64,000 nt of DNA from Dudresnaya verticillata. Taxonomy: Eukaryota. Location: contig OZ374561.1 in NCBI GenBank assembly GCA_977862235.1, positions 2,232,001-2,296,000 on the forward strand, given 5' to 3'. Positions 1,054-59,882 of this stretch are shown in pieces (position 1 is the stretch's first letter; each line of letters starts with the position of its first letter). The notes beneath the pieces are model-generated. The model saw nothing but the letters and a program-made list of their open reading frames with translations. It searched no databases and had not been told where the DNA came from. Position numbers and translations under genes: made by a program.

Positions 1054-1149
1054 AGTCGACACCTCCGCGAAAGGATGTGCTAGCTCCGGGCCGAGCCCGC
1101 AGCTCCGCACCCACCCGCACGCAACTCTACCCCCGCTCCCCCTCCCAAC

Positions 1150-11112: not shown

Positions 11113-11204
11113 ACACAACGAAATACAGCTGTGAGTGCAGTCTCAAACGCGAAGGACTGCTGCAGATGGTCCACCCAACCTGATTCCTGTGCCATGCGCG
11201 CTCC

Positions 11205-12290
11205 TCATTTTTGGCTTCGCTGCCTTTGAGCTTCAAAAAGGATCACAGTGCCAGCCATTGCAGCGTTCAAACTTTCCATGCCGTCTCTCATGGGAATACA
11301 AATACTCTGCTGAGCAGCCTCAAAAGCAGTCCGGCTTGGCCCGTCGGCTTCCGAGCCAACAACCAAGGCACTAGGTACTCTCCAGTTAACGTCTGTGTAG
11401 CTCATGTCAGAAGAACCTTCTGCAACACGAATTTCGCTCTTCGTCTCTCGCATATATTCAGCAATATCAGACCAACTCATCCCTGCCCTTGTCGGCAACC
11501 GAAACTGCGCTCCCATTCCAGATCTCAAGACCTTGAGGTTCCAAATATCTGCACACCCCGTGGTAAGGCATGCCGCCTGCACACCGGCTGCAGCCGCTGA
11601 TCGCAGTAATGTCCCCAGGTTCCCAGGGTCGCGTATTTCATCACATATCAAAGTCAAAGTAGTCGTCATGGGCAAGTGCACTTCCGGTCTGTCAAAAATT
11701 GCTACCAAGCCCTTATGTCCGAAACGATGCCACAATTGCAACTTGGTTAGTCTCATGACCACATCGCTATCGCATGTTGGAAGAAAGCAAGCTCTGGTTT
11801 GAAGTCTGGGACAGCTTACCTGGGGGCTAACTGTGTCCGAAAACGACCGAATAACGCTTTCAGACACCATGACGTCCTCGCTGCCGATATGTCGAATGCG
11901 CTCCCGAAGCTCATGGTTGACTACATTCCTGTTGAGAGCTTCTTTCGTGTAAAAGAAGCATCTGGGCTGAACACCAGCTTGCAAAGCATCCGATATCAAT
12001 CGCTGTCCCTCGAGGAGAATTCTTCCGTCTTTATCGCGTTGTCTGCGGCGAAGTAATGAGCGAGCGTCTTTCGCCCGCGGATTTTTGAGGCTCTGTATTT
12101 CAGATTCAGCATGTGAGACCATGCGCACTCTCTTGAAGGATCTGAAGCATGTCTTTGGCACTTTTGCCAGCAATCTCTCCGACCGCCCGACAAGGATGCA
12201 TGGAGAGAAGCAGATCTGGGAGAGCTGCCTGCCACTGCGAATCACGCCTTCTTCCCAGTACCCCATTTCCTTAATCCTCTTCCTATGCAT
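11205..12290 (-). CDS. SpoU/TrmH-family (SPOUT) RNA 2'-O-methyltransferase with one in-frame intron at 11712-11819; start codon uncertain (12290 or 12122)
   Basis: IQSLKNPRAK, LLEGQRLISDAL, IRDPGNLGTLLRSA, VLRSGMGA, LVVGSEADG, IPM..MESLNAAMAGTVILFE. Removing GTAAGC...ACTAAC...AAG (108 nt) restores TVSPQ|GLVA. Confidence 0.9.
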   Translation of the reverse strand: MHRKRIKEMGYWEEGVIRSGRQLSQICFSPCILVGRSERLLAKVPKTCFRSFKRVRMVSHAESEIQSLKNPRAKDARSLLRRRQRDKDGRILLEGQRLISDALQAGVQPRCFFYTKEALNRNVVNHELRERIRHIGSEDVMVSESVIRSFSDTVSPQVSCPRLQTRACFLPTCDSDVVMRLTKLQLWHRFGHKGLVAIFDRPEVHLPMTTTLTLICDEIRDPGNLGTLLRSAAAAGVQAACLTTGCADIWNLKVLRSGMGAQFRLPTRAGMSWSDIAEYMRETKSEIRVAEGSSDMSYTDVNWRVPSALVVGSEADGPSRTAFEAAQQSICIPMRDGMESLNAAMAGTVILFEAQRQRSQK

Positions 12291-12866
12291 TGACGTTGCA
12301 TTCAGTCCTCGAATATGTCAAATCCGCTTAGGCCCTCACAATAAAGCGCCAGCAGGTTCGAAATTGTCTTCCTGGTAGCGTTGCTCAGTGAAGCTGCGTC
12401 TGTAGAAACGAGTTGGGCACGAGATCAAGAAAAAAAAAGAAAACTGTATTGGATTTTCCCGTTCTGCGAGAAAATGGTCGGATCGGATCAAGCGAAAAAG
12501 CCGAAACTACAACTGCTCCTTACTCCTCGCGGTCATGGCTTGCATGCCACTCGTGATAGTACCTGTAGAACAAGCGTACTAGGCTTTTTGTACGGAAGCT
12601 CGCCTCACGTTCCTCGTTCCCGCGATTGCTTCCTCGCTTCCGCGGAAGAACCGCCCAGGGTCTCTGAGGATCCTCACAACTCAAAAGGTTCACAGCTTGG
12701 GCCATCGCCGGTTGGTGGAAAAGCACTGTTAGTCACTGCCTTCTTCTGTTTCCCATCACAGTTTGGTGCCATTTGGTCCTCGAAGCTTTTTACGATTTCT
12801 CCTGAGCTCTGGGGTGTGTGAAATTCCCTTCTTCCGGAAGAACAAACACAAGGCACCACATTCCAC

Positions 12867-14048
12867 ATGGTTCTATCAAAGTCCCTTACGCTGTCGCTGT
12901 TGACCAGTCGAACTTTCTGGGCACAAAGAACCCACCCGGCCATACGAACTCTGAGATTTTTAGAGCTCTCAAGAAGGCATTATACAAGGCAAGCCACCGC
13001 ATTCGTTGACCGTATCGTAATTGTTGTCAAGGCAGGAAATGGCGGGCCAGGATGCGCCTCATTCGCGAAAGGACCCAACAAAGAAATCGCCCCGCCGGAT
13101 GGTGGTCATGGTGGCCACGGCGGATCTGTGTGGGTCGAAGCGTCGTCGAAATGTAATTCCCTTCGGTCATCTGCTCTCAAATTGCGGGCAGAGAATGGTG
13201 GAGCCGGTTTTTCCGCAAACCAAAAAGGCAAGCAGGGCAGTGACCTGGTCATCCCCGTACCTCGAGGAACTATTATTCGGGAAAAACCTTTCATTTCAAA
13301 TGATCCGTTTTCGGAGCCACTGGAGGCTGAACCGCTAGAGGGTATGCTAATCTCTGAGCTGAATGAAGATGGTCAGCGAGCTGAAGTTGCTCGAGGGGGG
13401 CATGGGGGCCGTGGCAACTCATCATTCAAGTCTTCTCGAAACCGGTCTCCAACAAACTCTGAACCTGGTGAATCTGGTGAGAAGCGTCGTCTTGAGCTTG
13501 AGTTGAAGAGCATAGCGGACATTGGGCTTGTTGGGTTTCCAAATGCTGGCAAGAGCACGCTTCTTCGAGCTATCTCCCACGCAAAACCGAAAGTTGCGTC
13601 ATACCCATTTACAACCTTAAGACCACATATCGGGGTCGTACAAACAGCATCCCCAACTGACAAGTTTGCCGAACGAACAATGACAGTTGCAGACATACCA
13701 GGGTTAATTGAGGGGGCACATGCGAATCGTGGCCTTGGACACGAGTTCCTGCGTCACATTGAGAGAACAAGGTTCCTTGCTTACGTTCTAGATCTATCGG
13801 TCTCAAACAGCAACTTGGTTGAAGAGTTAGGTGTTCTGCACAACGAGCTGGAGATGCACGAAGAAGGCCTGTCCAAGCGACAGTCGTGCATTGTTGCTAA
13901 CAAGATGGATGCTGGACCGACGTCTCACGAAAACCTGAGCTCGCTGTTACATGCGGTCGGGGACGAAACAACAATCTTTCCGATTTCCGCTAAGCACAAG
14001 ACTGGCGTTCAGGATGTCATAGACCACTTTGCAGCCAGTCTTTCATGA
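12867..14048 (+). CDS. Obg/CgtA-family GTPase, probably organellar (MTG2/GTPBP5-like), with N-terminal targeting peptide
   Basis: FVDR..VKAGNGGPG, Gly-rich Obg fold, ELKSIADIGLVGFPNAGKSTLL, YPFTTLRP, DIPGLIEGA, NKMD, ISA. The N-terminus is basic and Ser/Thr-rich. Confidence 0.93.
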   Translation: MVLSKSLTLSLLTSRTFWAQRTHPAIRTLRFLELSRRHYTRQATAFVDRIVIVVKAGNGGPGCASFAKGPNKEIAPPDGGHGGHGGSVWVEASSKCNSLRSSALKLRAENGGAGFSANQKGKQGSDLVIPVPRGTIIREKPFISNDPFSEPLEAEPLEGMLISELNEDGQRAEVARGGHGGRGNSSFKSSRNRSPTNSEPGESGEKRRLELELKSIADIGLVGFPNAGKSTLLRAISHAKPKVASYPFTTLRPHIGVVQTASPTDKFAERTMTVADIPGLIEGAHANRGLGHEFLRHIERTRFLAYVLDLSVSNSNLVEELGVLHNELEMHEEGLSKRQSCIVANKMDAGPTSHENLSSLLHAVGDETTIFPISAKHKTGVQDVIDHFAASLS

Positions 14049-16558: not shown

Positions 16559-17620
16559 ATTCAGTCTGCATGCATACCAGGCGCACCTGTGCTGGTCGCC
16601 TTACATGGAAACCTCATCTTTGAAAGCCCGAAAACTCAGAGACGGATACGGGGCAACTCAGCCCAATCGAAACAGCAATGCGAATTGGACCTTAGCGCCC
16701 AACCCTCGACAATTTGCGTGGCTAGAACGTCCTGCCCCATGATTGCCCCGGCATCGATGCACAGGGCCCCACTGGAGCTGTGAAGACATCCATGAGAGGT
16801 AGTTCGATCTTGTGCGTTGCAAAGCAAGAGCCGTTCCCAACTCGAGAATTACGCGAATTACACAAATTACGCACTCCTCAAGACCTTTTGGAACTGCTTG
16901 CTTGGACTGAAGAGGTGGAAGCGGTACAGAGAGACCTTCTGTGCATCTGTCCTATGTAAACCCTTCGAAGGTCCCGGTGGAGACGCTTGGAAGAAAACCA
17001 CACTGGGAATAATTCCCTAAGGGTACTGGTCTCGCAGCAACAAAGGCACCGCTATAAGTTCCCATACGATTCTGGATCGTGCTCGAGAACAACAGAATTG
17101 TGTCGAAGGGACATCGCTGATTGTCGCGTTCCGGGGCACCCGTACTGTACAAGAGGGTACCCCATTCTCAACAATACAACAAACTGCGGCCGCCGAGTAG
17201 GGCACGTTGTGCTGTTTGGGCGTAACGCTTCGTAACGCTCTCGCCCTTGAAATGCATTATAATTACGTCAAGGACCCTTCTGCTTACAGTGGTGGCAGAA
17301 AGTATAAAGCACCCCCCTAAAAGGGAAAATGCTGGACAGTGCGGACTGTAGAGCGCTTTAAAAGGAGTGTCCTAAAAGGTATTTGGCCCGCGAAGAACGA
17401 ATCAGAAGCCCGTTTTATAAAAGCTTTAATCGTTTTCGAGATATTCAACAACGCGCCAATATGGGGTGGAAGTGTCTATAAGGCACTTGGCTTTCAGTTC
17501 AGTACTCGCGGGAAAAGCAAACAGTAGCGATGTATACCTTGCGCAGAACGACTGCAGGGACACAAAGGAAGCTGCACGCAGTCGAACACCGAGCAGAAAG
17601 GCAACTGGGAGGCCGCAACT

Positions 17621-19223
17621 ATGCCTCGCGGAACCATGCTGACAGAAGAGGAGAAAGGCAAGATAAGCGCATTTCACAAGGCCTCTTGGTCACAGGTGGC
17701 TATCGCCCGAGAGCTAGGACGAAGCAGAGCCGTGGTACAGAACTTTCTGCGTCGTCCAAGCCAGTATGGGAAGGCTGGTCGTAAGGGAAGGCCGCTCAAG
17801 TTGACTGCTGCAGGCAAACGACAGCTACTTCGTGAAGCCTCGAAGGGCGTTTTAGGCTCAAACGCCTTACGCCAGTCTCTCTCCTTGACAGTAAGCGCCC
17901 GCCGCGTTCGCCAAGTCCTTAACGCAGCGCCCAATCTCAAGTATACGAAAATGATGCCGTGCCCGATGATGCTACCCAGACATATCAAGGACCTAATCAA
18001 CTGGGCTACGGATAAGGTGACCTGGAACATGTGCGATTGGAATAACGTTGTCTGGAGCGACGAAAAAAGTTTAACTTGGACTGTCCTGATGGGTTTGCCT
18101 ACTACTGGCACGACCTGAGGAAGGAACGGCGCATCTTTTCGAAGCGACAAAATGGCGGTGACTCGGTAATGATATGGGGGGCATTTGCTCGAAGGAAGAA
18201 GTGTTAATTGGCCGTTTGTGGTACAACGGCGATTTGCGCCAAGTGGGCGCTCGACGCTGTAAGTCGTAACGGGCCAATGCCCTGTAAGGCGCTGGCATTG
18301 CCGGACTGCGCCATGATGCGACAAGTGATTGGCGCCTGGCGCGAAATCATCTGCGCCTCAGACGAGCAATTGGCGCCTGATCATTGGTGCGGCGCTGGGA
18401 TATTTCCCGATTATACGCCGCCACAGGGGCGTAGATCCGCCTCCCATTGCTCAATGTAATTCTTGTACAGTACACTGTAGTAGTTAGTATTAGCACGGGC
18501 ACAAGCCCTATTTATTGGTCCCCTGAATAGCAGGGCACCCCTGATTGAACCCTACGGGGAGGTTCTCGGTCTTGACCATTTTCTGGATTCCGGGCGCTTC
18601 CCGTTCCCGTTTTGGACGCCAACTACAGGCTCATCACCGCACGGCAGGTTCTCTGCGGAATACCGGGTCGCGTCCCCCTTTTTCCCTTTCCTTTTTCCTG
18701 GTCTAGCGCCATTCTACCAAGCCTCTACCGCACCCGAGCTACCTGTGAGCACGACGGTTCCGGACAGGTGTCCTTTGTTCTTTTTGCTCTTCCTGGGATG
18801 GACCCGGTGTGCTACACCGTTCTTGAGAACAAACAGAACGCTGTGAAGTACAAGCAAACCCTGGAAGACTATCTACTTCCATTTGTGGACGAAGAGATGG
18901 GTTCGAGCTGGACTTTTCAGCAGGATGGTGCCAGCATCCATACTGCCTACGCTGTCAGGGAGTGGTTTACTGAAGAGAATATCGTGGTAATGGACTGGCC
19001 GGCCAAGTCTCCCGACTTGAACCCGATAGAAAACCTCTGGGCCATCTTGGCGCGTCCTGTGTACAGAAATGCGAGGCAGTTCAGTACCGTTGATGAGCTT
19101 CTAGACGTGATCTTTCATGAATGGGATGCAATTTCCGACACAATCCTTGACAACCTCGTGCGGTCAGTGCAAAAGCGCTGCATTGAAGTCCGGCGTCGCA
19201 AGGGACTGACCACCAAGTATTAA
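17621..19223 (+). pseudogene. Tc1 transposase with a frameshift, a stop and a solo-LTR insertion
   Basis: MPRG N-terminal HTH, WSDEK, VMIWGAF, FQQDGASIH-(34 aa)-SPDLNPIENLW. Frameshift near 18065-18085, TAA near 18205, insertion at 18217-18816. Confidence 0.92.
18217..18816. mobile_element. Solo LTR (600 bp) inside the Tc1 transposase
   Basis: Ends TGTGGTACA...TGTGCTACA, with 5-bp TSD CCGTT at 18212-18216 and 18817-18821. Removal rejoins ...LAV|LENKQNAVKY. Confidence 0.9.
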
Positions 19224-19821
19224 AGTATTTTTAGCAGTTATAGTCGCGTCGGAAGGCCAAGTGCCTTATAGGCACTTCCACCCCATATTGGCGCGTTGTT
19301 GAATATCTCGAAAACGATTAAAGCTTTTATAAAACGGGCTTCTGATTCGTTCTCCGCGGGTCAAATACCTTTTAGGACGCTCCTTTTGGGGCGCTCTACA
19401 GTCCGCACTGTCCAGCATTTCCCCTTTTAGGGGGTGCTTTATACTTTCTGCCACCACTGTAGTACAGTGCCCGAATTTTAAATAAATACACCCACCGTCA
19501 CCGTGCTAAATACGGTTTCCCGTCCAGCAATGAGCGCAACAACACCGCCCTTAGAGCATCTCTACCGGTACGGTAAAACATATTTCTAACCCGCATTTTT
19601 ATCCTACTGAAGACCGGAAGGTTTTTTGTGATGAAATCGGACACGGCTGACACGTGGCCACCGGGGAAGGCGCAGCGACTTAGGCCGGCGCGCAACTCTC
19701 GCGCCGGCACCGTCGCCCCGCTATGCCTTTGTTCTCGCCGGTTCCTGTTTCCGACGAGAATTCTCCACGTCCCTTGGGGTGTGGCAGTAGGCCTTTCAAA
19801 GCAGTTGCCAGACAACTGTGG

Positions 19822-20491
19822 TGTAGTGAAAACCCACGAACTCCGAGACGGACAGCTGGCCTGACTTTCCTTAACGGACGAGAGCAACATTACCTCCACG
19901 GGGTGGTAGAGCAGTTCGCACCGAGACGGGAGAACAGCTAGCGGCTAACCGAGACGGATATTGGGAAGCAACAGACAAGGGGGTGGTACAAGTGCCGGGA
20001 CGGACTCCGTAACGGTGGTGGTGGTAGACCGCAACGGGCTCGGCGCGGGGAAAACCGTAAAGGATTGGGCTAAGGTTGCTTACCCGTTTACCTTAGGAGC
20101 CGCTGCGGTGCCGCCCTGATATACAAGTCAGGGTGGCACCGAGCGGCCCGGTCCGTGGGGGCCAGACCCTAGTGGCCTGGACCCATGGTGGAATCGGCCC
20201 TGCTGGTCCCAATCTCCGACACGGACATGCGCAGCATTCTCATTGGCTGGCGCACTACTCTACATACTGTACAGATGATCACTAAAAATAAAGAATAAAC
20301 ACTACAAATACTCCGATATGGTTGGTGCGCTTCACTGCTGTACAGCAATGCGTACCGGCGTACAGCAATGCGCACGACATCCGACACAGTTACACGTTGC
20401 CAGATCATCAGCGTGGCGTATTGCCACATCATCCGTTACGGTTGGCTTGCAGTCGGCGTGCCGCGTGCGCGCCACGGCTCACTTCACCACA
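19822..20491 (-). repeat. 3' LTR of element A (670 bp)
   Basis: Minus-strand ends TGTGGTGAA...TTCACTACA; polypurine tract immediately upstream. Confidence 0.85.
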
Positions 20492-20493
20492 GA

Positions 20494-20510
20494 CCCCCCT
20501 CCTTAAATGG
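20494..20510 (-). other. Polypurine tract of element A (CCATTTAAGGAGGGGGG)
   Basis: Purine run ending 2 nt before the TG of the 3' LTR. Confidence 0.85.
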
Positions 20511-20624
20511 CGCCACGTCCTCGGGCGTCCACCGTCACGGATTACCTTTGCTTCCACACCCACACACAATCGATACGGTATCGTGCTCAACTTTTCCTCC
20601 CCCTTCGTGCGCGCTTCTCCCACC

Positions 20625-23473
20625 ATGGCAGGGGAGGAGAGCAAGCGTTCCCCTTCCCCCTTTCAACCGACACGGCGTACCCGCGCGAGCTCGACGACGC
20701 GAGCGCCAGGTGCGCCTACCGTTACGGATGCTTCGACGCAAGCGCAGGCCTCGCCCTCGGCGGTTGTGGCACCACGCACGACGAGTGGTTGCGTGGATGT
20801 TTCCGCAGCGGAACCGTCGCAGGCACTATCGGCGGGCCGCGGCTGGTCTATCTACGATCCGAATCGGTTTGCTGCTGGCCCAGCCCCAAGGAGTACCCCG
20901 TCATGGAACGTAGCGACACACCGCCGCGGAGAAGATGTGACCAAGGATGACGACGAGGAGATCCGACGTGGAGGGGAGGAGCTCAACTTGGCGGACCTAC
21001 CCGCGATTCCGTTACGGACGCCATCGACCCCAATCTCAACCCCGATGCGGAACCTGGGTGCAAGCCCATATACGTCAGGCAGTACTCCGAAACGGTCGCG
21101 GGTGCGAGTGCGGAGCACGACGCCGACGACCGGCTCTTGGATGCCAATGGCGCGTACCCGTAGCGGTGAGGGCCCTGCTCCGAGCGGATCTTGGCCGGGA
21201 CACCATTTCGACCACCGTGCGGGGCGCCCGACGAGATCCGATGCGGAACGGGCTAAGGTGACACCACCGATGACAGTGTCAAACTTCATCGAGGGTTACC
21301 CAACCGTGTTGGAAGCGCAACGATACCAAGCCGTTTCGGAGCAGCCCTTCAAGGCAAACCAGCGAATTGGTTTCGTACCGAATCGGCGGGCGTTTGTGTG
21401 GCAAAGCCGATGGGTACACAGCTACTGCCAAGAGCGCACCTCTACCGTTTCGGATTTGTTGTGGTACCGTTGCCACGGAGAAGTGGGGTATACGGCGAAG
21501 GTGAGCCGCTTGTTGGTGACGGCGTTCCGTCTACGTGGGGCGCCGATCGGGGTGCAGTTTATCTGCTTTGACCCTCCGTATGACCAGTCGGTGTATTGGT
21601 TCCGCTATGCCGACGGGTGGAAAGACGACGCGGCGACGGAACACCGATTGCGGACGCGTAACCGAGACGGAATGCACGTGGGGGCACCCATCTTGCACAC
21701 GTGGAATACCAAAGAGTTCTTCCACCTTCCGTATCGGATGCGACGTGAGCTCTACCTCACAGCTCCGCCGTGGTGGGATAAATACGAGGTAACTCGTTGG
21801 TTATCCGTGCCTACGCCTTCTGTGGTGGCCTACTTCTCAGCAGACCTGCTCACGGAGCGGGAATGGAATCGCGAACATCCGAACGGAGAGCGTTCCCCTA
21901 TCCAGGATCAACTCGATGTGCTTTGGCGCATCTTCCGATCGGAGTGGGCAATGCTGGTGCTGTTTTCGTGGCTCCAAGTTGCCTACTACGGAGTGCGGTG
22001 CAATACCAAGTTATCCGACTGGCGCTGCTTCCCGCGTGATGATGCTGACCTACCCGGAGGGGACTGTGGCCGTATCTTTCAACTTCCCGTGACGGTGATT
22101 GCTCTAATTCGCCAAGTCGGTGTAGCCGATTTGGTGACGGGGTCGGCGTACCCACTCCATCGGGTTGAGCGTCTTTTATCCGTACACGGAGAGCAGGATT
22201 GGCAACGCACTCCGGGCTTCTTGGGGTATAGTTGGGATGAGGACCGTGTCCTATCGGTGCCCCCGCTTAGGCCCGGAGTGAGTGAGCCATATTTCCTTCA
22301 TCGAGAAGACCCGCGTCCGGAATGGTTGGCATTAGAGGTGCAGGCCCATCGGTGCTATGCTCCTCGCCAAGCACCAAGGGATGCGTACCGTGACTGTTTG
22401 GACGGAGCTGAAGATTGGGGGAGCTGTCAGGAGGCAGCGGGGCGTTCGCGTACAATCGACCCGCTCGATTCCGTTACGGTGAGGCAGCAAGAGGCTGACC
22501 CCTTCTTGGAAGACCAGGAGGAGGTCATGCCCGTGGCCTCAATGGAAGCGGGTAGCGAGAAGACACCCGCTCCAATCCTTCCGGTGGCCGCGACAACCAC
22601 GTCGCACGATGTGGATCGTGAGACTCCTATTCCCGTATCGGATAAGGCCCCAACGCCCATAGGCGTGGTTGCGCCGACTATGGCGGTGCCCAAGCTTGCG
22701 GCACCATCCAAGGAGGGAGTCTCAAAGGAGCAGATCGTTTCGGAAGTGGCGCCGGATACTGTACCGGCGGCACCGTCTCCTGCAACGCAAATGCCTGCCG
22801 CCGCGGAACCGCCCCTGCCAAGTGCTCCGCTGTCGGCGCCCACTCCCGCACCAGCGGTGAGTGAGGCACCGATCACCGTATCGGCAGTGGCTGCAAAGCG
22901 CCCAAGTGTTGGGGCAACTGGAGACAAGCCCTCTTTTCTCGCGTCAAGTCATGAACCGTTACGGAAAAGCGATATCGCCTCGCCAGAGAAGGACACGGAT
23001 CCACCGCTGCGGAAGGACGTACCTTCACCCGAGTCGGGACCATCCGTATTGGTGGTTTCCTCAACGGAGCATTCACTCGAAGCCGGGGTTAGGGATAAGC
23101 CGTCGATCTCCCCGAAGGTAGAGCTTCAAGAAGATGAGGATCCCCCGTTACGGTTCCGGCTCATCTAGCCGCTACGGAAAGTGGGTTACAGGTGCTGCGA
23201 GGCATTTGCCGTACGCAGCGCTTCCCATTGCCAGGATCCGTTCAGGAAGCGCTAACCTTAGCGGAGGGGTTGATGGAACAGGTAATTCATCTCCGCGCGG
23301 TGGTCCGTCGTCAACGTCGGCGCATGGATAGTGCGATTCGCGTCTTGGGAGATGATACGCAACGCGTATTCCAGTCGGATCCGAGTGGGGAACCCGGCTT
23401 ACGAACGGGACAGGGGAGTAACGAGGAAGCTACAGTTGCCCCTGCTCCGAAGCGGCGTCGACGTACCTCTTAG
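20625..23473 (+). CDS. Antisense accessory ORF of element A, function unknown: 847 aa to 23168, plus a frameshifted C-terminus (coiled coil, KRRRRTS) to 23473
   Basis: ATG in CACCATGG context ~130 bp inside the 3' LTR boundary. Long open frame with a Trp/Tyr-rich globular core flanked by low-complexity regions. Probable frameshift in the C5 run at 23142-23146. Confidence 0.75.
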
Positions 23474-23576
23474 AGTTACAGTGCGACGATCTCCTTAACG
23501 GTTTCCATTATTCCTCGATCTTCGCTTGCGATAAACATTGTGTATTCTGCTCACGCCCCAGCACTCCAATTGTCCG

Positions 23577-26500
23577 TTACGGTGAGTGACGTGTTGGATT
23601 AGCACGTCGCCTTGGCTTACCCTTAGTGGATGTCTTTTTCTTTTGCTTCCAATATCGGTAGATGAAATTCTGCGGTAACTCCTCCGCGGGCTCAAAAGTG
23701 TCTTGATCCGGAGGGTAACCATACCAGCGGACTTTGTATGTCATCCCAGTAGGTTCGTCGCGGTGACCGACAATCTTTTCGATCACATATTCCGTATCGG
23801 CTTGCAGTGGTTCCGTCGCGGAGGGAGTAGTACCTTCTGGAGGTGGCACTAATTCTCCGTAGACGGTTGATGGCGTGACAGGCGGCACTGTTAAGGGTGC
23901 CGGCTGAACCGCAACTCCGATCGGGACCTTCGTGATGCGATCAATACTTACGGGGATCAATACCCCTTCCTTTCGGATTGTAACAACATGTTCCGTTGCG
24001 GATTCCACTTCGTAAGGCCCAGTAGCTCTCGGAAGGAGTTTCTTCATTTCCTGAGCCACCTCGCCTACATCATCCGGCTTGCCTTCCAATCGGTCCCGTT
24101 CACGGCGTTCGGCAGGCCGCAAGTTATGGGGCGGCCTGTCGACGTAGACTTGATCTCCGTTACGGATTATGAGCCTAAAGCGCACCTTACGGTCAAACAG
24201 TGCCTTGGCTTTTTGCTGAGCCACTGTTTGCTTCGTGCGCGCTGTTTGGAGCGCATACCGTAAACGGCGCATGGTACTCCGCTTATGTAGCGCCGGGGTC
24301 ATACGTCCTTCCGTAACGGTTTCTTGATGCTCGACAGGAGCCCCTCGTACAACAATGTCCGATGGGTGGCGTGTCAGCACCAAATCAAATGGCGTTGTTT
24401 CCGTAACACGGTGTACCTGCATGTTGTACGCATACGTCAACGGTTGCAGGTACAGATCCCAATCGGAATGATGATCCTCAACGTAATGGCGCAAACGCTG
24501 AGCGATTGTCTTATTAAATCGCTCAGCTTGCCCATTCGTCTGCGGATGGTAGGCAGCGGTGAGCAGGTGCCTGACTCCGAGTAAGGAACACACCGCGTCG
24601 AAGAACTTAGCAGTAAACTGCGGTCCGTCTTCGGTTAGGACAAATTGGGGTGCGCCGTAGGCGTACACCCAAAAGTCCAGAAAGGCGTTAGCCACCACAA
24701 CGGCTGTTGTTGTCCGTAACGGAATACAGCGCGTCAGCTTAGAGAACCAATGGGTTATGACCAAAACGTAGACATAACCCCGTTTTGTCTTCGGAAGTGG
24801 CCCGAGAATGTCGATAGCGACAAACTCCAAAGGTCCGCTAGCGGGGAAAATTTTCATAAACCTTTGATTCCGAAAGCGGGTTCCCTTTGTCTTCACGCAG
24901 GAGCGACATGTCCAAACGGATTCAAAGACATCGTTGGCCATATGAGGCCAATAATAATCCTGTCGGAGTGTATAATACATCTTAATTCCGCCTGGGTGAC
25001 CCGACATCAGGGTGTAGTGGGATAAATACAATACCCGTCCACGGAGCTCGCTTGGCACCACCTTCTGTAGAGCGCCATCCAATTGGGACTTGCGTACCAA
25101 GAATCCGTTACGGTCATAGTCAAACTATGATCCAGGGGAGCATACCGTATCGGCTTTGAGACGACAGAAAGGGTCTCTGGCTTGCGCTTCGAGAAACTCC
25201 TCCCTGGTAATTGTCTCATCCTTAACGTCGGATTCTTGGATTACAGTAAACCGTGACGGTATTGCGTCGGGCTTATCAGGGGAGGCGGATGCGCTCCCAC
25301 TGGCGGGCTCCATGGCGCATATTACGTTATTTTCCGTAGCGGTTTCTCGCGATGTGGCCCAATCGGTTAAATAAACTCCATGCTCATATAATCCGTCGAC
25401 GGTATTTTCGGCGATAAAGCAGGGCATCTCTTCATCCAAAGGTCTATCGTCACCACCATCCGTTCGGAGTCGCGACATCCCATCGGCGAGTTGATGCTTA
25501 ATTCCAGGATGGTATTGCACCTCAAATTCAAATTCCGATAGGCGAAGCCTCCACCTGGCTAGGCGGCCAGATGAGTCTGCGAGGTTCAGGATCCACCGCA
25601 GGGCATCGTGATCCGTTCGGAGAATAAAATTATCACCGTAAAGGTAGGGTCGGAGTGTTAACATGCTCCAGACCACGGCTAAGCATTCCTTTTCGGTTGT
25701 CGTATAATTTTCTCCGCATCGGTGAGGCTTCGGCTCCAGTATCCAATGGAGGTGATTGCCATTCGGTTGTTCCTGCAGAAGGACACAGCCGACTTGGTGG
25801 TCACATGCGTCAGTGTCCAACGTATATTTATATCCGTGACGGGGTAGAGCCAATATAGGTGGAGAGATAAGGCGTCTCTTCAGTTCCTCGAAGGCTTCAT
25901 ATTCCGTATCGGATAATATTCCAAACTCAAAGGGTGAGCCCTTGCCGGTTTTCTTATTTAGCGGAGCTGAAATCCGAGCGAAGTTGGGTACAAAGCGACG
26001 ATACACGTTACACATTCCCAGGAAGGATCGCAATTCCGTTTGGTTTGTCGGCGGCTTCGCGACCTTAACGGATTGGATATTTCTATTATCCACTTCTAAT
26101 TTTCCGGGACGGATAACATGCCCCAGGTATTGTACAGACGCGTTGAAGAAGTCACACTTTGACAATTTCAACGTTACCCCAGCGGATCGTAAAAGCGTAA
26201 GGACTTCCTTCAGGTGGTGGAAATGTTCCGTAACGGTTTTTGAGTAGACAATTACATCGTCTAGGTAGACGAGGGCAAATTGTCATTTAACCGTAGAAAG
26301 GATTATATCCACTGCCCGTTGGAAGGTTGCCGGTGCATTTTTCAATCCGAATGGCATTCTCCAAAAACGGTATAAGCCAAAATGGCTAGTGAAGGTAGTT
26401 TTGTCCCTTTCCTCTTCCGGAATCTCGACTTGCCAATATCCACTATTGCAATCCAGGGTGGTAAATACAGTAGCTTCCCCAAGGGAATCTATGCACTCAT

Positions 26501-27641
26501 CCATCCTGGGCAAGGGATATGAGTCCCTAACCGTTACGGAATTGAGCCTTCTATAGTCAACACAGAACCGCATGGTGCCGTCCTTTTTTGGAACGAAAAC
26601 CACGGGGCTGGCCCACTCCGATGAGGCTGGTTCAATTACCTTAGCGGAAAGCATGCGATCGATCTCTGTCTTTTCGAGATCTCGCTGCTTATGTCCGGCA
26701 CGGTATGGGGCTTGATATACTGGCTTAGCTCCGGGATTTAACTCGATGCGGTGCTTGGCAGCTGTAATGTTGCCAAGATCGCCACTCCACATCGACTTAT
26801 ATTCCTCGAGTAGGGTTAAAATCCGTTTGCGGAGCGATGCTTCTTCTGTGCCGATCTGGACTTGATCCTTCCAATTGGTAGTATTTGTATTTTCCGTTAC
26901 GGGTTTGCTTAGTTCCTTGTCGTGACGGGAGATGCTGCTGGCCTTTTCGGAGGTAGGGTTAGAATTAAATGATTGAATAATTCCTCCCCCCTCCTTAAAT
27001 GGAGGTATACCGTCAACGGTAAAAATAGCAGAAGGGCAGCAGTAGCGAGGTCCACGACAGTAGATTTGGGCAACCGTACCGGCTTGTTAGAAAAATTAGA
27101 GACCCAGATCCGAAACGGTTTGTTAGGTACAACATCCATAATACCATTAGCCATTAACGTAAGGTGCTTAAAAGCCGGCTTAGGATGATTTTGTAGAAAG
27201 CATAACCCACCCGTGGGGTATTAACCGTTACGGTGGCTTGAGTCATAGGGGGAATAAGGGTAGATTTTGCTAAACGAATTTTCTGAGAAACCGTAGCGGT
27301 AGAAAGAGGTGAGGGCTGTAGGGTTGCAGTGGTTCCCGTCTTCGGAATTTTGGCTTGACCAACAAGGGATACCGGTGGGTAATGATGAAAAACAACTTTC
27401 CGTAACGGAGGGAGTATTGCCTTCACGTAGCGGTCGATGAAGGTAGTTCCCAAAATACAGGGAGCCGCCAAGTTCGCGACCACTAGAAAATGGACGCGAG
27501 CACGGAGCTCTCCGACACGGACGAAAAGTTGGATCTGACCAAGAGGGCGTATAGCACGATTAGACGCATCCCGTAATTGAGGACTGGCTGCTGGGCGTAT
27601 GAGTGGGAGCTATTGGCGCGGAAGGCGCCTGGCACTAATGA
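23577..27641 (-). pseudogene. pol of element A: protease C-part, dUTPase-like segment, RT, RNase H, integrase, chromodomain (stops/frameshifts)
   Basis: WASPVVFVPKKDGTMRFCVDYRRLN, MPFGLKNAPATFQR, VYLDD (~26255-26270), TDAC, LRTDH, HHCC zinc finger, AIDILGPLP, YHPQTNGQAERFN, chromodomain EYVIEKIVGHR..YKVRWYGY..DTFEP. Confidence 0.93.
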
Positions 27642-30600
27642 GCAAAATCGGAGCGTTCCGTCTTTCCTAGGTGCAAACACCACTGGCGAGGCCCAAGGCG
27701 ATTGAGAGGGCTCGATGACGCCGTGACGGAGCATGCGATCAACCTATTCCTGTGAAAACTGGCGCTGCCGCGGCCCCGCCCTGTAGGGCGGCGAGGCAAA
27801 CGGGCGCGCGCCGGGAAGGAGGTCAATATAATGCTCCGTCGTGGTGGTTTCACCTAGGGAACCATCCCACATGGCGGAGAACCGCTGAAGTAACCGTCTT
27901 ACCCGCTCGTGGTGAGCAGCGGGTAAGTGGCTAAGGTCCACGTCGTCGACAGTTAGAGTTATCTCCTGTGCGTCCCCCGGTGAGGGGGCGTCGTTGCGGG
28001 TTGACACGTGTGTCTCGTGCTTTCCACGTTAAGTAACTCGTCCGCTTCCGTCGTCGCGATGCCCAACACATCCCCCAGCTGCACGTGGCTGGGGATGACG
28101 GCAGTGGGGTGCGGCAGGGCGGTTGCGACGACTTGCCCCTTGGGGAGCAAGCGCTTCGTCGCGGAGAAGTTCGCGACGAGTATGCGGAACGGTTCGTTCG
28201 GCGTTACTTGGGCAATCCCATTTGTGGCGAGGACGCCGTGTCGCTGGTAATGGAGTCACAGGGCTGGATGCATATTGCACCCGCCCGTTCAGTGGTGACC
28301 CGCATCCACTTCTGCGACCGCTCAGGTATTACTAACTTTTCGGCGATCCGAATTTTTGGCGACAAGCGCCCCGTGATCGAGCTAGGCTCGAGATCACTTG
28401 CGGTTAACCGCTGTGCAGCTGGGAGGTGGGAGAGTGGACGACGAGTGATGGGCACTGCTGTGCCATCGTCCATCTCTACTTCCCTTGAGCGTGGGTGGAT
28501 CTCCTCCACGAACCGGTCGCAGAAGTCGCACCCAAGTATGACGGGTGCGGCGAGCTGGTCGCACACGATGAAGTCAAGCTTCACAACGCGCCGGCCCAAG
28601 CGGACCGCAAGACCCAAGGTTCCTAGGGTCTTGATCGCGTTGTTGTTCGTATCGGCGATCTTCGGGATATTACCCGTGCGCAGCGCCTCCAGTGCGGAGG
28701 GCGCCACTTCGGTTTTCCGAATGAAGTTGGGGCCTGCCCCAGTACCGAGAACACTCAACTTCCTCGTCATGGCCGCGGTGGTGCTGCCAATGTCGGCATA
28801 CACCTTATAGTTACGCTTGGCCAAGACGAAGACTCGGTCTCTCAATTATGGGGGCCGGTAGAGCGTCTGCGCTTTGGTTTTAACACCTTTGTTTGGGTGA
28901 ACCCCTGTTGACGGAGACGACCCCTTTTTTTGGCTCGGCATTCACAGTCGCCTCCCCTGTTGGGACATGGGGAGGTGACTCCCCTGCCTGGAAAGGCGGA
29001 ACCCGGCCTAGTTTTTCGGCTCGTGGTGAGCCAGCGGGGCACGGCGAAGCACACCCGGATGGCGCTCCGACTTCCGTGCTGCGGGTGGACCCGGTGATCG
29101 AGAACGCTCCCGGGCGTTGTGTTGCTGGGCCAGGTACCGGGTGTGCAGCTGCTCAGAGTAGCTGCGCGCCGGCACTTGGGCCTGCTCCTCGTCCGTGAGC
29201 GCCTCGAAGTTGATGATGATCTGACCGCGGTCACGGTATGTGAGGGTGCAATCCGTAGCGTAGTGTCCTCGACCGTACCTCGACCGTAACACGCGTGGCA
29301 GATCACCGTTGGCCCTCGCCCTGCTGGACGTTGAGCCATCGGGCGACTTGGGCGGCGGCCCTGCCAACCGGGACGAGATCGCTCGAATCCTGGAGAATGC
29401 TCCTGAAATGCGACGCGCGGCGCGGGGATGTGCCTTGGGGCCATGGCCAGCGCCGGGTCTTCTTCCGTACCGTAACCGGTATCGGTGGGGAGGTCCGTCG
29501 TCGGGAACGACGACGTGTCCGTTCCCAGTAGGTGTAAGTCACCATCATTGTTTCGGATGACCCCGTGTTCGCGCTCGCTGCGGTCCCGGAATTCAACCGA
29601 GGATTCGGCGAGCAGCGCTTGACCACGCCCTCGCGCCGTTGAAGGCGGAAGACGGGCTCTGGCCGTAGTCGGCGAAGCGGGGACTACCCCTGGTCTGCGG
29701 GATGCACCCGTTCTTGCGCGATGAGCGTCGCCCTCGTCCTGTGCAAAGTGGACGAGGTGCTCAAAGGTGAGTTCACCTCGCCGGGTCTCTTCGCGATGGC
29801 GCGCAACAAGGGAGCGGATGGTAGGGTCCAGCCCGTCGATGAACAGAGTCATCTTCTCCCAGGCCGGGTAGACGTTGCCGCAGCGATGGCACCCTTTAGA
29901 AAGGCGCATCGCAAACGCGGACTCCGTCTCACCCGGCCGTTGCGTGGTTGCACGAAGAGCGAGGGTGGCCTCACGTATGGTGCAAGGCATCGCATACGTG
30001 CACAGTAAGTAATGCACGTCCTCCGGCCACGAGTTGATTCCACCATCTGCTCGCGATGACGCGCCGCGTACACTCCGGAACTGCTGCGAAGCAGTTCCAC
30101 GGAGGACGTTCGGGAGGGCGATGAACTCCTGGGCCTCATTCATCTCCACGGTGTCGGCCTCGTCGACAAACCTCGAGAGAAAGTCAAGAATGGGCACGGG
30201 GTCATCCCCAGCAAACGCGCAGTCGCGTAAGGTCAACTCTAGCCGCTTGATTTGGTCTTTGACCTTACCAGTTTGGCGACTCGAGCGCCTTTGGGAAGTG
30301 TCGGCCAGCCGATATGTCCTGTAGGACAGTAGCCGGTCGAACAGGGGGTTCGTGGGCGTGAGCTCCTTCAGCCCCCTGTACTTCCTTCCGCCTTTGCGCT
30401 ATTGCGGCGGGCCGAGGGGCGACCCTCGGAACCGCTGTCGGATGAATCCGAGTTATGGGAGTGATCTTCAGAAGAGGACGAGGGGACGAGTTACCGTCAT
30501 CGTGACGACTACCGCGCCTGTTCCCATCGTTTGCGCGGCCACGATCACCGCGTCCACTTCGGGTCCGGTGCTCGCCTGCGCGCCGTTCTTCCGCACGCCG

Positions 30601-31674
30601 CGCCTCCGCGTCGATGATGCGGAGGTCCGTTCCGACTGGAACAACCCAGTCATACTCGCGTGCGTCGCGTTCGGCTTGGATGTACCCATTGCGATCCGGG
30701 TTCTCGACGTCCCCCGGACCGCGACCACACGAGAGTGGGCTGCCGGTCTCTCCTTCGCGTATCGGGCGATCCCGTGAAATGGGGTCAGCCCCTGCAACTC
30801 GCTCTTCCAGGAGACGGTTAACGTCTGCCCGGAGGGTGCGTAGTTCGCGGTTGACTTCATCGCGTCGGGCGTGATCGCCATGGGGACAATTCCCGGAGGC
30901 ACCGGCGTCGACGCGCGTGTTAAGCGCAGCGACTTGGCCTTCGATGTCCTGTATACGGGCGTTAACGCCATTAAACTGTTCACGGCAGGTCGCCGTGAAC
31001 TGCGCCACTGCCGCGTCTACTCACTGAGCCAGGTTGTCCACCAGGACGGCGTCCTGCGAGATGCAAATCTCGCGGACCGCCGCCCTGGGGACAGTGAGTC
31101 CTGAGGCGATGTGGACGCTGGCAGGCTCGGGATTACCCGCTGCTCCGGCCGTTGGGCCTTCCGGATACGGCGGCGGAGGCGCAGGTTCCGGCGAACGAAT
31201 CGGGCTAACCCGTGGACTGCGAGGCGCAGGAGATCCGTTAATGGATACGGTATTGGCCGGACCGTCGCAAGACGGTGCGTGGCCTTGCGGATCATACGCT
31301 GTTTGATATACAGTCGGCGCCCTTTCCACAGGGGCGCTGACTGTAGACTCCGGGGTCGATGCCGACGGCGCCAAAGGTGCCGTGGCGGTCGAAGTCGGAT
31401 CGGGATAACCCGTGTAATTAGACACAGGCGTCTGTGAAGGCGTCTGTGAAGGCGCCTGCAAGACGGGATACCCCGGGGTTGAATAAGCAGGGGCCTGCGA
31501 AGGCGCCTGCGGAGCGGGATAACCCGTAGAGATCGGTTCGGGCGCCTGAAAAGGCCCCTGGGAGACGGGAGGTCCCACGTTCGCGGTCGAACTGGCGGGA
31601 GTTCCCGTGAAGGGAATGGTTGTGGCCGGCATTGCCGGCGGAGGGTCGGACGCCATTGGCAGTCCGGCGGTCAA
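27642..31674 (-). pseudogene. gag-pro-RT(N) of element B
   Basis: Pro-rich N-terminus, capsid-like LSYRTYRL..FAGDDPVPILDFL..TQRPGETESAFAMRL..FIDGL, zinc knuckle CHACYGRGHYATDC broken by an 11-bp duplication near 29270, protease VLGTGAGPNFI..APVILGCDF, RT WASPVVFAPRKDG. Confidence 0.88.
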
Positions 31675-31993
31675 AGCGCTCGCCGTCGGTTACGCGGGAT
31701 CACCCGTTCACTGGCTGTCGGCACCAACGCGCGAGCGGCTTAAAAGCTGTCCAATCTACGGGCTTGGTCCCGGATTTGGCTGCGAGTGACCTTGAAAGCG
31801 GAGGGGGCGGCGGGGCTCCGAAGTGAGCGAGCTCGCCTTGCGGCTCGAGGTAGCTGGTCTCACCATAACGCGCGTGCGTTTTGGGAGAGCCCTTGGAAGC
31901 AAGACGAAGCGGCCGACCAATCGGAAAGGTCGGCGGGGCAGGAAGAAAAGCGGGAGAACCCGACCGGACGGAGAACGCTCCAATCGGGTGGGA

Positions 31994-32011
31994 TTCTAGG
32001 TCGGGAGACCA
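31994..32011 (-). other. Primer-binding site TGGTCTCCCGACCTAGAA (probably tRNA-Tyr)
   Basis: Starts with TGG 6 nt after the LTR end; identical 18-mer at 45610 and 48795. Confidence 0.85.
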
Positions 32012-32017
32012 TAAATG

Positions 32018-32803
32018 TGTAGTGCAACCCTCCGAATGAGAGTCGCAACCAACACAACCCACTAGTCCGACGTGGGAGGGTAGCCGCGGTGACGTGTGTG
32101 AGCGCGTCGGTACGTGGTAGGGTAGAGCAAGGGGAAGGCCCCACCCAGTGTACGGACTGTAAACACACACCAAAGCCGTGTGAGCACGTAGTGAGCCAGA
32201 AGGTGGGGGCACCGGCACAACAAGCGTGTGAAAACGAAGGTAGAAAAGGTTTCAGCACCATAGGCGTACGTAGCCCAGCTCCACGATGGCTTCACTCGCC
32301 AAGCGCACGGAGGTAGGGGTACCCTAAGTGTGGAGCCGAAGCTTGGGTTTACTCGAGGAGGTCGGTCCTAGCCCCTTAACTCCCACCGCGGGCGGCGGCG
32401 CCTAGGCGGTGGCGACTAGGGCTACTGTACACTAGCAAATAAACTAACACTAGAGTACAATAAACTAACACTACAGTAGCACAGTGTACCTACTGTACAC
32501 CGACACCAGCACGCTGTAAGACGTGTAATGACGCATGCGTGTGCGCGTGTGCACGTGTCACGCGTGTTGCGCGTGTCTTGCGCGCGCTTGCGTGGCGGTG
32601 GCTGTAAGGCGGCGAGTGCGGCCCTGTAACGGCGACGGCGGGGGAAAGCCCCAAGGGTGGGCGCGGGCCCACTGTAGTGGTCAACCATGGTCCAATGGGA
32701 ATGCCCAGCTTGGCGGCGCGCGTCGCGGACGCGCGCGAGCCATCACGCGTAGAAATGGGGTTATCAACCCCCAGCTCGGAGAGGGCTTGGGCGTTGCACC
32801 ACA
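32018..32803 (-). repeat. 5' LTR of element B (786 bp)
   Basis: Minus-strand ends TGTGGTGCAAC...GTTGCACTACA (10/11 inverted repeat), followed by the PBS. Confidence 0.85.
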
Positions 32804-44761: not shown

Positions 44762-44765
44762 GACT

Positions 44766-45608: not shown

Positions 45609-45609
45609 C

Positions 45610-45627
45610 TGGTCTCCCGACCTAGAA
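45610..45627 (+). other. PBS TGGTCTCCCGACCTAGAA of element D
   Basis: 1 nt after the LTR-terminal CA. Confidence 0.88.
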
Positions 45628-45679
45628 GGTGGTCCCGAAGTTTCGCAATTATTTGTAATTCGTTTCTATCCGAGACACA

Positions 45680-48793: not shown

Positions 48794-48794
48794 C

Positions 48795-48812
48795 TGGTCT
48801 CCCGACCTAGAA
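48795..48812 (+). other. PBS TGGTCTCCCGACCTAGAA of element C
   Basis: 1 nt after the LTR-terminal CA. Confidence 0.88.
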
Positions 48813-48860
48813 GTCGTCGAGACCCAAGTACTTCTCGCATCGACGCGATCGAAGTAAAGG

Positions 48861-51292: not shown

Positions 51293-51306
51293 AGGCGGCG
51301 CCGCTC

Positions 51307-57327: not shown

Positions 57328-58971
57328 TTACGAGCGCCCATACGGGTTCGCGGAGTCGTAAGGCGGGTTATCACGAGGATCGTTTCCGTTTTCATATCGA
57401 GTCACGCGAAGGAAGTTGGGCGCATACGGATCCGATGTCTGCGATTGTCCGTCGCAACCGCTGGGTCCGAAGCCCGAAGGGCCTCCGGAGCCAGACCCGT
57501 AACGCGGAGCATCGTAACTCGGGTAACCGTAATCTTCGCGCCGACGCTTCCCGCTCAACTTGAGGTCCCGAATACGATGACGAAGGTCCGCTATCTCCGC
57601 ATCCCGATCACGAAGCTGCTTACGAAGGAGACTCAACTCCGTGACCGCGCGAAGGAAACTTCCGCCGAGATCGTCCAGCAGTTGCCGAAGAGTCCCATCG
57701 GGGGAGATGCCCGCTTCGCGACACGCGTCGCTCACGGAGTCGAGACTGCGAATATCCGTAGGACAGCACATCTCGAGACTCGCGATCGAAGACTCCGAAG
57801 CGCTCGGCACCAACGCGACAGCCCCGGTGCCAAGAGATGACCCCGGAGTCAGCAACGACGAAGGAACCGGAGCTACAGAACGAGGAACGCGCGGCAACGG
57901 ACCAACCTCGCCTCCGATGGCACGAACCGCGGCACTCGGATGCGAAAACGGATCAACTCGCGGACCACGCCCTCCTCGTGAAGGACGGTTATGGCACCAA
58001 TCGAACCAGGCCCTGGAGCCCACGTCGTGTCCGACTACTTGGGACCACTGTCCCGTCGGGAAATCGCGACGAGTCGACTGGAGCTCCCTCCGATCCGAAT
58101 CCTCGATGGCAATCGCGAGTATCTTCGTGAACTGCATCGTGCAATCCGAGCCTCGGAGCGAAAGATCCGGATACCCGCCATCCTCGGAGAACGACTTCGA
58201 CCAACGATCACGAACGAAACTACGCAACGAAGCATCGAGCACCCACACGTATTGACGCTGCGTGACATCCGAAATCAACGCGCGACCAAGCTCGAAGCGA
58301 TATTCGGAATCCCGGAAACGCACGAAGCACTTCTTCGTAGGTTCCGCAAACAGGTCGACCACGAGCCCGAAATAACGAATCACCCTCGGAGGTGGCACGA
58401 CTAAGCCCGCGGGGGCCCGAATACACGAAGCATCGAGCCAGAACGAACTCGCAAACATGCTCAGAGGCACGCGGTCATCGAGACGCTAATTCGTATCCAC
58501 GCGATCAGGCATCGAGCCCGCGCCACGGAATAGCGCCCAGTCTCTACCACCGATGTGCACTCCGAGGATGCGCGAAATCGAGTCTACGTGACGCCATACG
58601 TTTCCCGCGGCGGACTCGAACTCCGGATAATCACGAAAGCGAGTAACCGCAACCAACGGAGAATCCACGGAGATACCCGCACCCGGTGCCAGGAGCACGT
58701 GCGCACACGCATCTACGTAAGCAACCTCGTCGACCGTGGTCACGTAGGAGACATCGCACGGAAGACCCATCGGAGTCGTATACACGGGGCCACGGGGCCA
58801 GAATACGTGAAAGACTCCGGCTCCATTATCATCATGACCCTCGCAAAGTGCACGAAAACGAGCGAGATCTGGACGAACACGGCCATCGTAGGCAGCAACC
58901 TCTTCGTGAGTAACTCCGGAGATCGCGAACTCGTCCCACGCGAAGTACAGCTGCGCAGAAGGAAGCCTCGG
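57328..58971 (-). pseudogene. Antisense accessory ORF downstream of pol (family D); one in-frame stop at 58486-58488; 5'-truncated by an LTR
   Basis: ORFs 58486-59007 and 57328-58470 are in the same frame. Shares motifs with the element A antisense ORF and ends with a coiled coil and KRRR. Confidence 0.72.
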
Positions 58972-59882
58972 TGTAGTGCCAGGGGGGTCCCCCATTTTCG
59001 CTTTCAAGCGGGTTGATATGCAGCGTCTACCGACGGACGACCGCCAACGGTGCGCTCAACCCGCCCGCGGCGCAAACACGTCACCGACGCATGCCGCTGG
59101 CCACTTGGGCCAGAACGGCTCGCTTGGCGTGCAGACCGCACGCCTGAACCCGGGCACTGTACGGCGCCACGCGTACGCGCATGGCGCAGAGGCGGGAACG
59201 TTCGCTGTAAGCGTGGCCCGAATCCGGATCCAATCGGGATCCCACATCGGGATCAGACATCGGGATTAAGGGGTGTAAGGCACGCGCCTGTAAGCCTGGT
59301 GCATCCGCACGGCTGGCCCGAATCCGGACTGGATCGCGATTGGTGCGGATCGAGATCGAACGTGCCATGGGGCGCATGCGGCTGTAAGGAAGTAATCCAC
59401 GTGTAGGTGTAAGGACTCGAACGGGTAAGCTACGCGTGATCTGTCAGGAGCGCGGCTGCATGACGGACGGATCTGTCAGACGCGCCTCGGGACAACACGT
59501 GTCCCGAGTTCCCGCGTGACGCGTACACCCGCGTCGCCGCCGCTAGGTAATTCTATACTTAGTTGATCCGTCTCAGACGTCATAGTAAACCCCGGGAAGC
59601 CGGCGTTGGTCCAGACTTCCCCGTTCAGCACGTGCGTACCCTACCGCTGCCTACGGCTAAGCGTCTACCTCCCGTGCTTCCACGTCTCTACCCGTCTTCG
59701 ATGTGTTTCCTTTTTGTTTCTTCTGTTCTTCCTTTCCGCCTCGGGCGTTTACAGTCCGCCCAAGGCGAGTCAACTGCTCTACCACAAGTCGCCCAAGGCG
59801 AGGCTACTCACCGCCAAGGGCGTCGCTACCCACCGAGCACCGAACTGCTCGGCGGTGTTCCGTCAACGACGTTCGCACTACG
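58972..59882 (+). repeat. LTR of family F (homolog of 43861-44761); no matching TSD and no PBS
   Basis: Starts TGTAGTGC and ends GCACTAC(G). Region ~59470-59880 is closely similar to ~44346-44761. Confidence 0.85.

Follow-up and report, generated by a model that had tools for sequence, protein, structure and literature searches.

The plus-strand open reading frame (ORF) that lies between pol and the 3' LTR of A2, a red-algal Gypsy element, is almost certainly a real, functional gene borne by the element, and its core is, judging from profile and structure searches, an undescribed protein family. In related elements this gene family is under purifying selection and has descended together with the integrase. 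A short palindrome dispersed along A2 is a candidate target of the ORF product and is open to testing by gel shift. The analysis covered 64,000 nucleotides of Dudresnaya verticillata DNA, and this whole stretch is called the window below.

The antisense ORF and its frameshifted tail

20625..23168, plus strand: antisense additional ORF of 847 aa, with a low-complexity N-terminus (residues 1-205), a folded core (about 205-560) and a Pro/Ala/Ser/Thr linker; ends early at a frameshift
21237..22304, plus strand: conserved core domain, mainly alpha-helical, for which no known fold was found
23138..23473, plus strand: frameshifted C-terminal tail, with a conserved small helical motif, a coiled-coil-like stretch and a terminal KRRRR (predicted NLS)

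The original prediction of an 847-aa antisense frame with a strong ATG context (CCACCATGG) was borne out. The remaining five frames across the ORF carried 17-28 stops each, and none of 2000 dinucleotide shuffles reached 847 codons (longest 468), which ruled out a chance frame. The ORF runs opposite to pol, as claimed, and this pol is of the chromodomain-integrase type (PF00665, PF00385). The start had been placed just inside the PPT/3' LTR; it is indeed near, but the ATG falls outside the LTR, 134 bp to its internal side. With the start codon placed in this way, the LTR does not have to be the promoter. As read from the sequence, an ATG-free leader of about 115 bp separates the ATG from a TTAAAT at the PPT, which is a predicted TATA-like promoter element. 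The labels NLS, TATA-like and (below) GNRA were assigned by consensus pattern.

The N-terminus and the linker were both rich in P/A/S/T and 14% of the core residues were aromatic, in agreement with the predicted layout. A coiled-coil-like segment and KRRRR, both predicted, were also present, but were located in a second frame (23138-23470) and not by the 847-aa frame itself. This copy of the ORF is broken once, by a frameshift. A profile made from homolog C-termini only ranked the 23138-23473 frame first among 2626 window frames plus reversed decoys (iE 6e-5; next 1.2), so the tail is the genuine C-terminus, frameshifted in the A2 copy, and had rightly been counted as part of the antisense ORF. 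With the tail, the ORF stops at 23473, which is 103 bp from the pol stop at 23577 (about 100 bp had been given), while the same distance was 131-163 bp in five of six intact loci. Programmed frameshifting at the ORF/tail junction was considered and is disfavoured, because the homologs read continuously through it.

The ORF had also been described as better preserved than pol. This was true by count (one lesion against about six, counted by eye, in pol: two in-frame stops and about four frameshifts), but the difference was not significant (P=0.14). The claimed lack of a TM helix, which we assessed by hydropathy, held for the A2 copy (maximum 19-residue hydropathy 1.58) but not for 27 of the 105 homologs, which reached at least 1.8, mostly in a central core helix. 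The product is not env-like, as stated before, because its orientation is antisense, unlike that of the sense env-like aORF. SUMO and SIM motifs spotted by eye in the antisense protein showed no enrichment and were discarded.

Anatomy of the host element and its neighbours

In the original prediction, the ORF was assigned to a single "element A". We rejected this because two proteases and two RT N-termini were found: element A is a composite in which the 5' half of one element (A1) is joined, near 27640, to the 3' half of a different one (A2). The antisense ORF belongs to A2, the dead 3' half of the fusion.

19817..20491, minus strand: A2 3' LTR, 675 bp, termini TGTGGTG / CACCACA; no partner LTR within the window
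20494..20504, minus strand: A2 polypurine tract AAGGAGGGGGG, 2 bp from the LTR
23577..27609, minus strand: A2 pol remnant, with truncated protease, RT, RNase H, integrase and chromodomain
27640..32475, minus strand: A1, the 5' half of the other Gypsy element, with LTR-like end, gag, protease and RT start; fused to A2

The A2 LTR limits were set by its termini and the PPT; because element A is an A1/A2 fusion, neither a partner LTR nor a target-site duplication of A2 was found in the 64-kb window. The A2 integrase has a substitution at one catalytic aspartate position and carries a chromodomain (PF00385, E 2.9e-11), which is the chromovirus trait. Its nearest named relatives were integrases of Chondrus crispus (57% identity) and Agarophyton chilense, with 41-60% identity among the top named matches. 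These matches indicate that the host is most likely a florideophyte red alga rather than a land plant. The integrase has its own terminal basic stretch, and the idea that the antisense protein supplies an NLS for integration was dropped. On the A1 side, a PBS-like stretch TGGTCTCCCGACC (31989-32013, minus strand) adjoins the LTR-like end; presumably it resembles the 3' end of tRNA-Tyr.

A second antisense ORF was found in element B:

57331..58998, minus strand: element B antisense ORF, with one in-frame stop; position and layout as in A2

This ORF is a probable remote member of the family, going by a score of 13.0 bits, where the best of 1000 shuffles reached 4.7, and an HHalign probability of 35%; BLASTP found no significant similarity between it and the A2 antisense ORF. 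Its ATG lies just within the element B 3' LTR. Element B (43861-59884) is probably also composite, because its LTRs (43861-44761 and 58972-~59881) have an overall similarity of only 72% and gag-like ORFs occur twice (46805-48010 and 48858-50444). Element C (60096-64000) starts directly after the element B LTR and is related to A1 (gag 63% identical).

The window also holds other features. A 479-aa frame (42991-44427) was rejected as a further antisense ORF, since by eye it reads like a Harbinger-type nuclease; the Harbinger/PIF-like DDE nuclease frame itself, also identified by eye, occupies 42991-43860 on the minus strand and is cut by the element B 5' LTR. A Tc3/mariner-like DNA transposon with TIRs of about 211 bp (95%) and a split transposase (PF11427, PF13358) lies at 17285-19461. 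An intact host gene of 1147 aa (1084-4524) encodes hemerythrin, CHY and RING domains, and by domain order we take it to be a BRUTUS-like iron sensor. Compact host genes for a JmjC/cupin protein, a TrmH/SpoU-like methyltransferase (by eye) and an Obg GTPase are found at 9910-14048.

A protein family that recurs behind related integrases

A full HMMER search of 1.84 billion proteins gave 106 homologs at E<=1e-3 (best 1.4e-29). One of these matches, P0183, is false, being an insect repeat protein, and P0183 and P0205 were excluded from the alignment used for folding. Among 30 representatives looked up, three carried a name with an organism: besides the false match, these were hypothetical proteins of Gracilariopsis chorda (four copies; PXF39757.1 is an intact homolog) and a transcript of Gracilaria changii, which comes from a Trinity assembly and is at most an indirect hint of antisense transcription. 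Only the full HMMER search succeeded with the antisense ORF: word-indexed protein searches and a direct metagenome scan returned no match, and the ESM Atlas contained no usable match to the protein.

The integrase scan of metagenomes gave 557 loci, of which the best 80 were used; viral contigs yielded no relative when the single integrase was the query and five weak integrase loci when an integrase alignment was used. The core profile matched 19 of 85 loci at E<=0.01 (a small database), and 17 of the 19 matches were antisense. With three profiles, two of which were built from the same loci, an antisense member was found behind the integrase in 48 of the 58 listed related loci with at least 1.5 kb downstream. 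A profile from database homologs only matched 24 of the 58, and in the other direction a profile built on those loci alone picked up the ORF of the window, with iE between 6e-8 and 4e-6 where the best decoy had 0.3. HHalign joined the subfamilies at 99%, 87% and 94%. There were also plus-strand matches in three loci (L015, L063 and L080), that in L063 being antisense to a second element. The original prediction had allowed for an ordinary host gene captured in one copy only, and the recurrence of the family behind integrases (48/58) shows that it is not so.

Five loci (L001, L002, L023, L025 and L052) have an unbroken pol, with frames of 1349-1745 aa, together with an unbroken antisense ORF. 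Locus L067 contains an additional antisense frame of 656 aa (3523-5490), coiled-coil and R/S-rich, between pol and the family core. A literature search found no description of the family or the motif; Repbase entries or the supplements of a Bostrychia preprint, which hold a curated Gypsy consensus, may note the ORF.

Selection and co-descent with the integrase

A dN/dS near 1 had been named as the sign of a frame that is not maintained. The median dN/dS, measured on relatives and not on copies of A2's own family and slightly lowered by the choice of stop-free segments, was 0.27, well below 1, compared with 0.18 for the integrase; the interval was below 1 in 15 of 16 hand-picked non-overlapping pairs. 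The antisense ORF evolved 2.6-3.1 times as fast as the integrase. Trees of the ORF and the integrase were compared in two subfamilies: in f1 (17 loci) the Mantel correlation was 0.76 and seven of eight supported splits were common, and in f2 (11 loci) it was 0.84 with one of five splits common, only two being supported in the integrase tree. In a quick tree, drawn with midpoint rooting, family members occurred on both sides of the deepest split. An antisense frame of at least 500 aa was present in six of seven loci with intact pol and in 9 of 45 others (p=0.0014), an association that could result from copy age alone.

Model of the core

AlphaFold gave a useless model from the single sequence (pLDDT 36), but with 105 sequences the core was modelled at pLDDT 88 and pTM 0.88 as mainly helical. 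The most conserved core residues are charged or aromatic, and include R233, H265, D277, R282, E286, Y289, E339 and R343 and further E364, R373, Y377, W384, P398, Y403, E440 and D465. The net charge of the core ranged from -11 to +10 among homologs.

The domain had not been recognised before, and the core indeed has no Pfam or NCBIfam family. The core alone had no Pfam match at E<=10, the NCBIfam search of the family returned coiled-coil matches only (SMC-type in 7 of 105 homologs), and PHROGs (9 proteins) and PDB sequences offered no family or structure for the core. Foldseek of the core model against BFVD and PDB gave no match at E<=0.001, and the best of 48,161 chains in VIA-align had Z 3.6 (rmsd 4.7, 109 aligned); no DNA-binding fold resembling the core appeared in the structure searches, although the matches listed cover mostly residues 67-254 and barely probe other parts, so a new fold is not proven. 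The family is widespread in red algae and has a confident model that matched no structure in these searches, and its members are at present annotated as host "hypothetical proteins".

Of 36 database homologs, 12 have a basic motif within their final 15 aa, compared with 22 of 705 background windows. Among 13 long antisense ORFs from high-GC loci none had a terminal NLS, and two had an internal RRKR.

A palindrome confined to A2

19843..27520, no strand: 61 dispersed palindromes W-CCG-(T/c/a)WA-CGG-W, median spacing 96 bp

The A2 element contains 61 CCG-N3-CGG sites in 7.8 kb, where 5.3 were expected. The original prediction does not mention this palindrome. Nine of them are in the LTR, 26 in the antisense gene, 24 in pol and two in spacers; none is in a tandem repeat, and 50 of the 61 are within the antisense gene or pol. 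The form CCGT(A/T)ACGG makes up 17 of the 61, and CCGTTACGG occurs 17 times in the window, every time inside A2, against 0.5 expected. The half-sites prefer one spacing, gaps of 0-5 giving 4, 2, 10, 61, 15 and 2 sites. Density is 0 per kb at 15-19 kb and at 28-31 kb and the palindrome ends at the A1/A2 junction; A1 is without CCG-N3-CGG. The palindrome score of A2 was z=14.4 compared with a null maximum near 3.6.

Synonymous-codon shuffling gave 3.9 sites in the antisense ORF (24 observed), 1.1 in IN (7 observed) and 0.8 in RT/RH (7 observed), and 0 of 2000 shuffles reached the observed number in each case. Because the excess survives this null in the ORF, the integrase and RT, the palindrome is a feature of the nucleotide sequence rather than of the encoded proteins. 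Its profile is two-fold symmetric with A/T flanks and centre. The 61 sites showed no covariation, compensatory change or G-U variant, and only seven of them were predicted to fold as hairpins, with a stem of just 3 bp. This symmetric, non-covarying pattern is what would be expected of a homodimer site on double-stranded DNA. The case for such a DNA site is strong for A2 and only partly general.

Inverted motifs in related elements

Other inverted motifs, selected post hoc, were found in relatives: GGG-N4-CCC in A1, CGC-N5-GCG in element C, GGC-N5-GCC in L001 and CCC-N3-GGG in L023. The motif-by-family matrix was near-diagonal, so that neighbouring families have different motifs, which points to a reader encoded by the element. 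Compared with 120 shuffles, six of 12 family elements beat all, three were marginal (1-2 of 120) and three gave nothing, namely L005 and also L052 and L057, which both have intact antisense frames; the control sets gave 6, 3 and 98 of 120. Conservation of motif sites between copies was significant in two of five pairs.

Some of these signals differ from that of A2. One flanking pair covaries in A1, C and B, the element C motif being CG(C/T)N-N3-N(G/A)CG, and in L027, L050 and L062 GNRA loops on diverse stems are preferred on the sense strand (12-21 sense vs 7-10 antisense). Over the length of L027, 4-bp stems that close 4-nt loops are in about four-fold excess. The A1, C, B and L027-clade signals point to putative RNA hairpins rather than to a DNA site.

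Proposed function and alternatives

We take the ORF to be an ancient accessory gene of red-algal chromodomain Gypsy retrotransposons. We tentatively propose, at slightly less than even probability, that its product acts in the nucleus as a dimer, binds DNA in a family-specific manner and counters silencing of its own element. It would be transcribed separately in antisense from a promoter near the PPT, would enter the nucleus via the terminal basic motif and dimerise via the C-terminal tail. The core would then bind CCG/CGG half-sites about every 100 bp along the element, and the bound protein would protect the element from silencing or activate its transcription. The A2 copy, with its frameshifted tail and dead pol, would be a broken relic, and intact copies would supply the protein in trans. 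The antisense protein is our candidate for the palindrome reader because the reader must separate families in one genome, and this protein is fast-evolving, coiled-coil-tailed and the only spare product. The broader reading, in which a clade of red-algal elements has self-recognition by a new-fold antisense protein that binds a family palindrome placed in synonymous codons, as a counterpart of VANC, is possible but more doubtful.

The reader of the palindrome might instead be a host factor, or else Gag or integrase; in that case the antisense protein would work separately through protein contacts, for example as a suppressor of chromatin or small-RNA silencing. L052 and L057, with an intact antisense gene and no detectable motif, agree with this, as do the core residues, in which acidic and aromatic positions are conserved and positive charge is inconsistent. 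The half-sites also count for a host reader, since some host zinc-cluster factors typically recognise CGG/CCG triplets. Many host contacts are predicted for TE accessory proteins in the accessible part of PMC13547354. However, three related elements in the window have three different motifs, and host genes with their flanks are nearly free of the palindrome (7 sites in 17 kb); recognition of element ends by integrase or Gag would fit poorly with a symmetric, element-wide site. We consider this explanation rather unlikely.

Binding of RNA stem-loops along the genomic RNA, with a role in Rev-like export or packaging, is less probable still. In its favour are the 4-bp stems of A1, C and B, which covary and have fixed loops, the sense-strand GNRA tetraloop hairpins of the L027 clade and several conserved core arginines, and the available text of a review proposes roles like those of retroviral accessory proteins for antisense ORFs (PMC7264820). 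The A2 sites themselves do not fit, being strand-symmetric, with a 3-bp stem, without covariation or G-U and with only 7 of 61 predicted to be paired.

That the protein serves infectivity or movement between cells in a non-canonical way, with the hydrophobic core helix as its anchor, is very improbable. The gene sits where env genes sit and the helix is hydrophobic in the 27 of 105 homologs mentioned above, but the orientation is antisense, the N-terminus is hydrophilic, the terminus carries a basic motif, the viral structure search gave no match, and the helix belongs to one domain that was modelled with confidence (pTM 0.88). Some of the 106 database homologs may be host genes, yet a captured host gene, a nested element in one copy only or a chance frame is scarcely credible, given the shuffles (0/2000), the constant position and strand in 48 of 58 loci, the agreement of the ORF and integrase trees and a core without a Pfam or NCBIfam family; the one-copy and chance readings are refuted by the recurrence and the shuffles.

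Comparison with known systems

By position (antisense, from pol to the 3' LTR) the A2 ORF is in the class aORF-3R. Examples given in the accessible parts of the reviews are gene23 of maize Grande, rice RIRE2, TRP28 (PF04195) of Silene Retand, ORF2 of bean PvRetro13 and fungal Boty, and the same parts call the function of antisense extra ORFs of LTR retrotransposons unknown (PMC7264820, PMC11963269). The aORF-3R of plant Tat/Retand elements also lies between pol and the 3' LTR in antisense, is kept in most copies and shows coiled-coil/SMC-like matches as the A2 family does; the Grande product is nuclear and its promoter is upstream of the gene (PMC7264820, PMC11963269). However, Retand is a non-chromovirus, whereas A2 has a chromodomain and belongs to a red-algal lineage. 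PF04195 (Transposase_28) matched 0 of 105 family members at E<=0.01, and the approximately 350-aa core is unrelated by profile to the TRP28 family. A dispersed palindrome is present in A2, and none is described for Tat/Retand aORFs in the available portions of PMC7264820 and PMC11963269. If the broader self-recognition reading is true, the palindrome would be the first concrete target for any antisense additional ORF.

Compared by integrase alone, the chromodomain Ty3/Gypsy elements of Chondrus crispus and Agarophyton chilense are related to A2; in the databases they appear as unnamed proteins. The accessible part of PMC12477816 describes repeated origins of chromodomains among algal Gypsy elements. 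Red-algal EnSpm transposons carry the Plavaka accessory genes PAG1-3, and PAG3 has been proposed to bind its own inverted repeats; these genes are borne by DNA transposons and encode ParB, 2OG-oxygenase, methylase and SET domains, in the accessible text of bioRxiv 10.1101/2025.02.11.637652, none of which was detected in the A2 family.

The closest functional parallel that we propose is VANC. As far as the available parts of the papers describe, the transposons that encode VANC21 and VANC6 have accumulated short motifs, different in the two, to which the respective protein binds (PMC5735166), and VANC is an accessory protein encoded by the element, in which a coiled-coil region for dimerisation is predicted (PMC13547354), as the A2 tail is coiled-coil-like. 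A family-specific short motif is enriched in the element in both systems (PMC5735166), with a mixed picture in A2 relatives. VANC belongs to MuDR DNA transposons and has a MAIN-like domain, whereas A2 is an LTR retrotransposon; a VANC/MAIN-like domain was not among the families listed by a Pfam search of the A2 family. The VANC motifs are non-palindromic and lie in non-coding tandem repeats (accessible part of PMC5735166), whereas the A2 sites are palindromic, dispersed and mostly within coding frames. Because PRC2 represses transposons in the red alga C. merolae (available text of bioRxiv 10.1101/2022.10.24.513474), a counter-silencing factor in red algae might target a mark other than that targeted by VANC.
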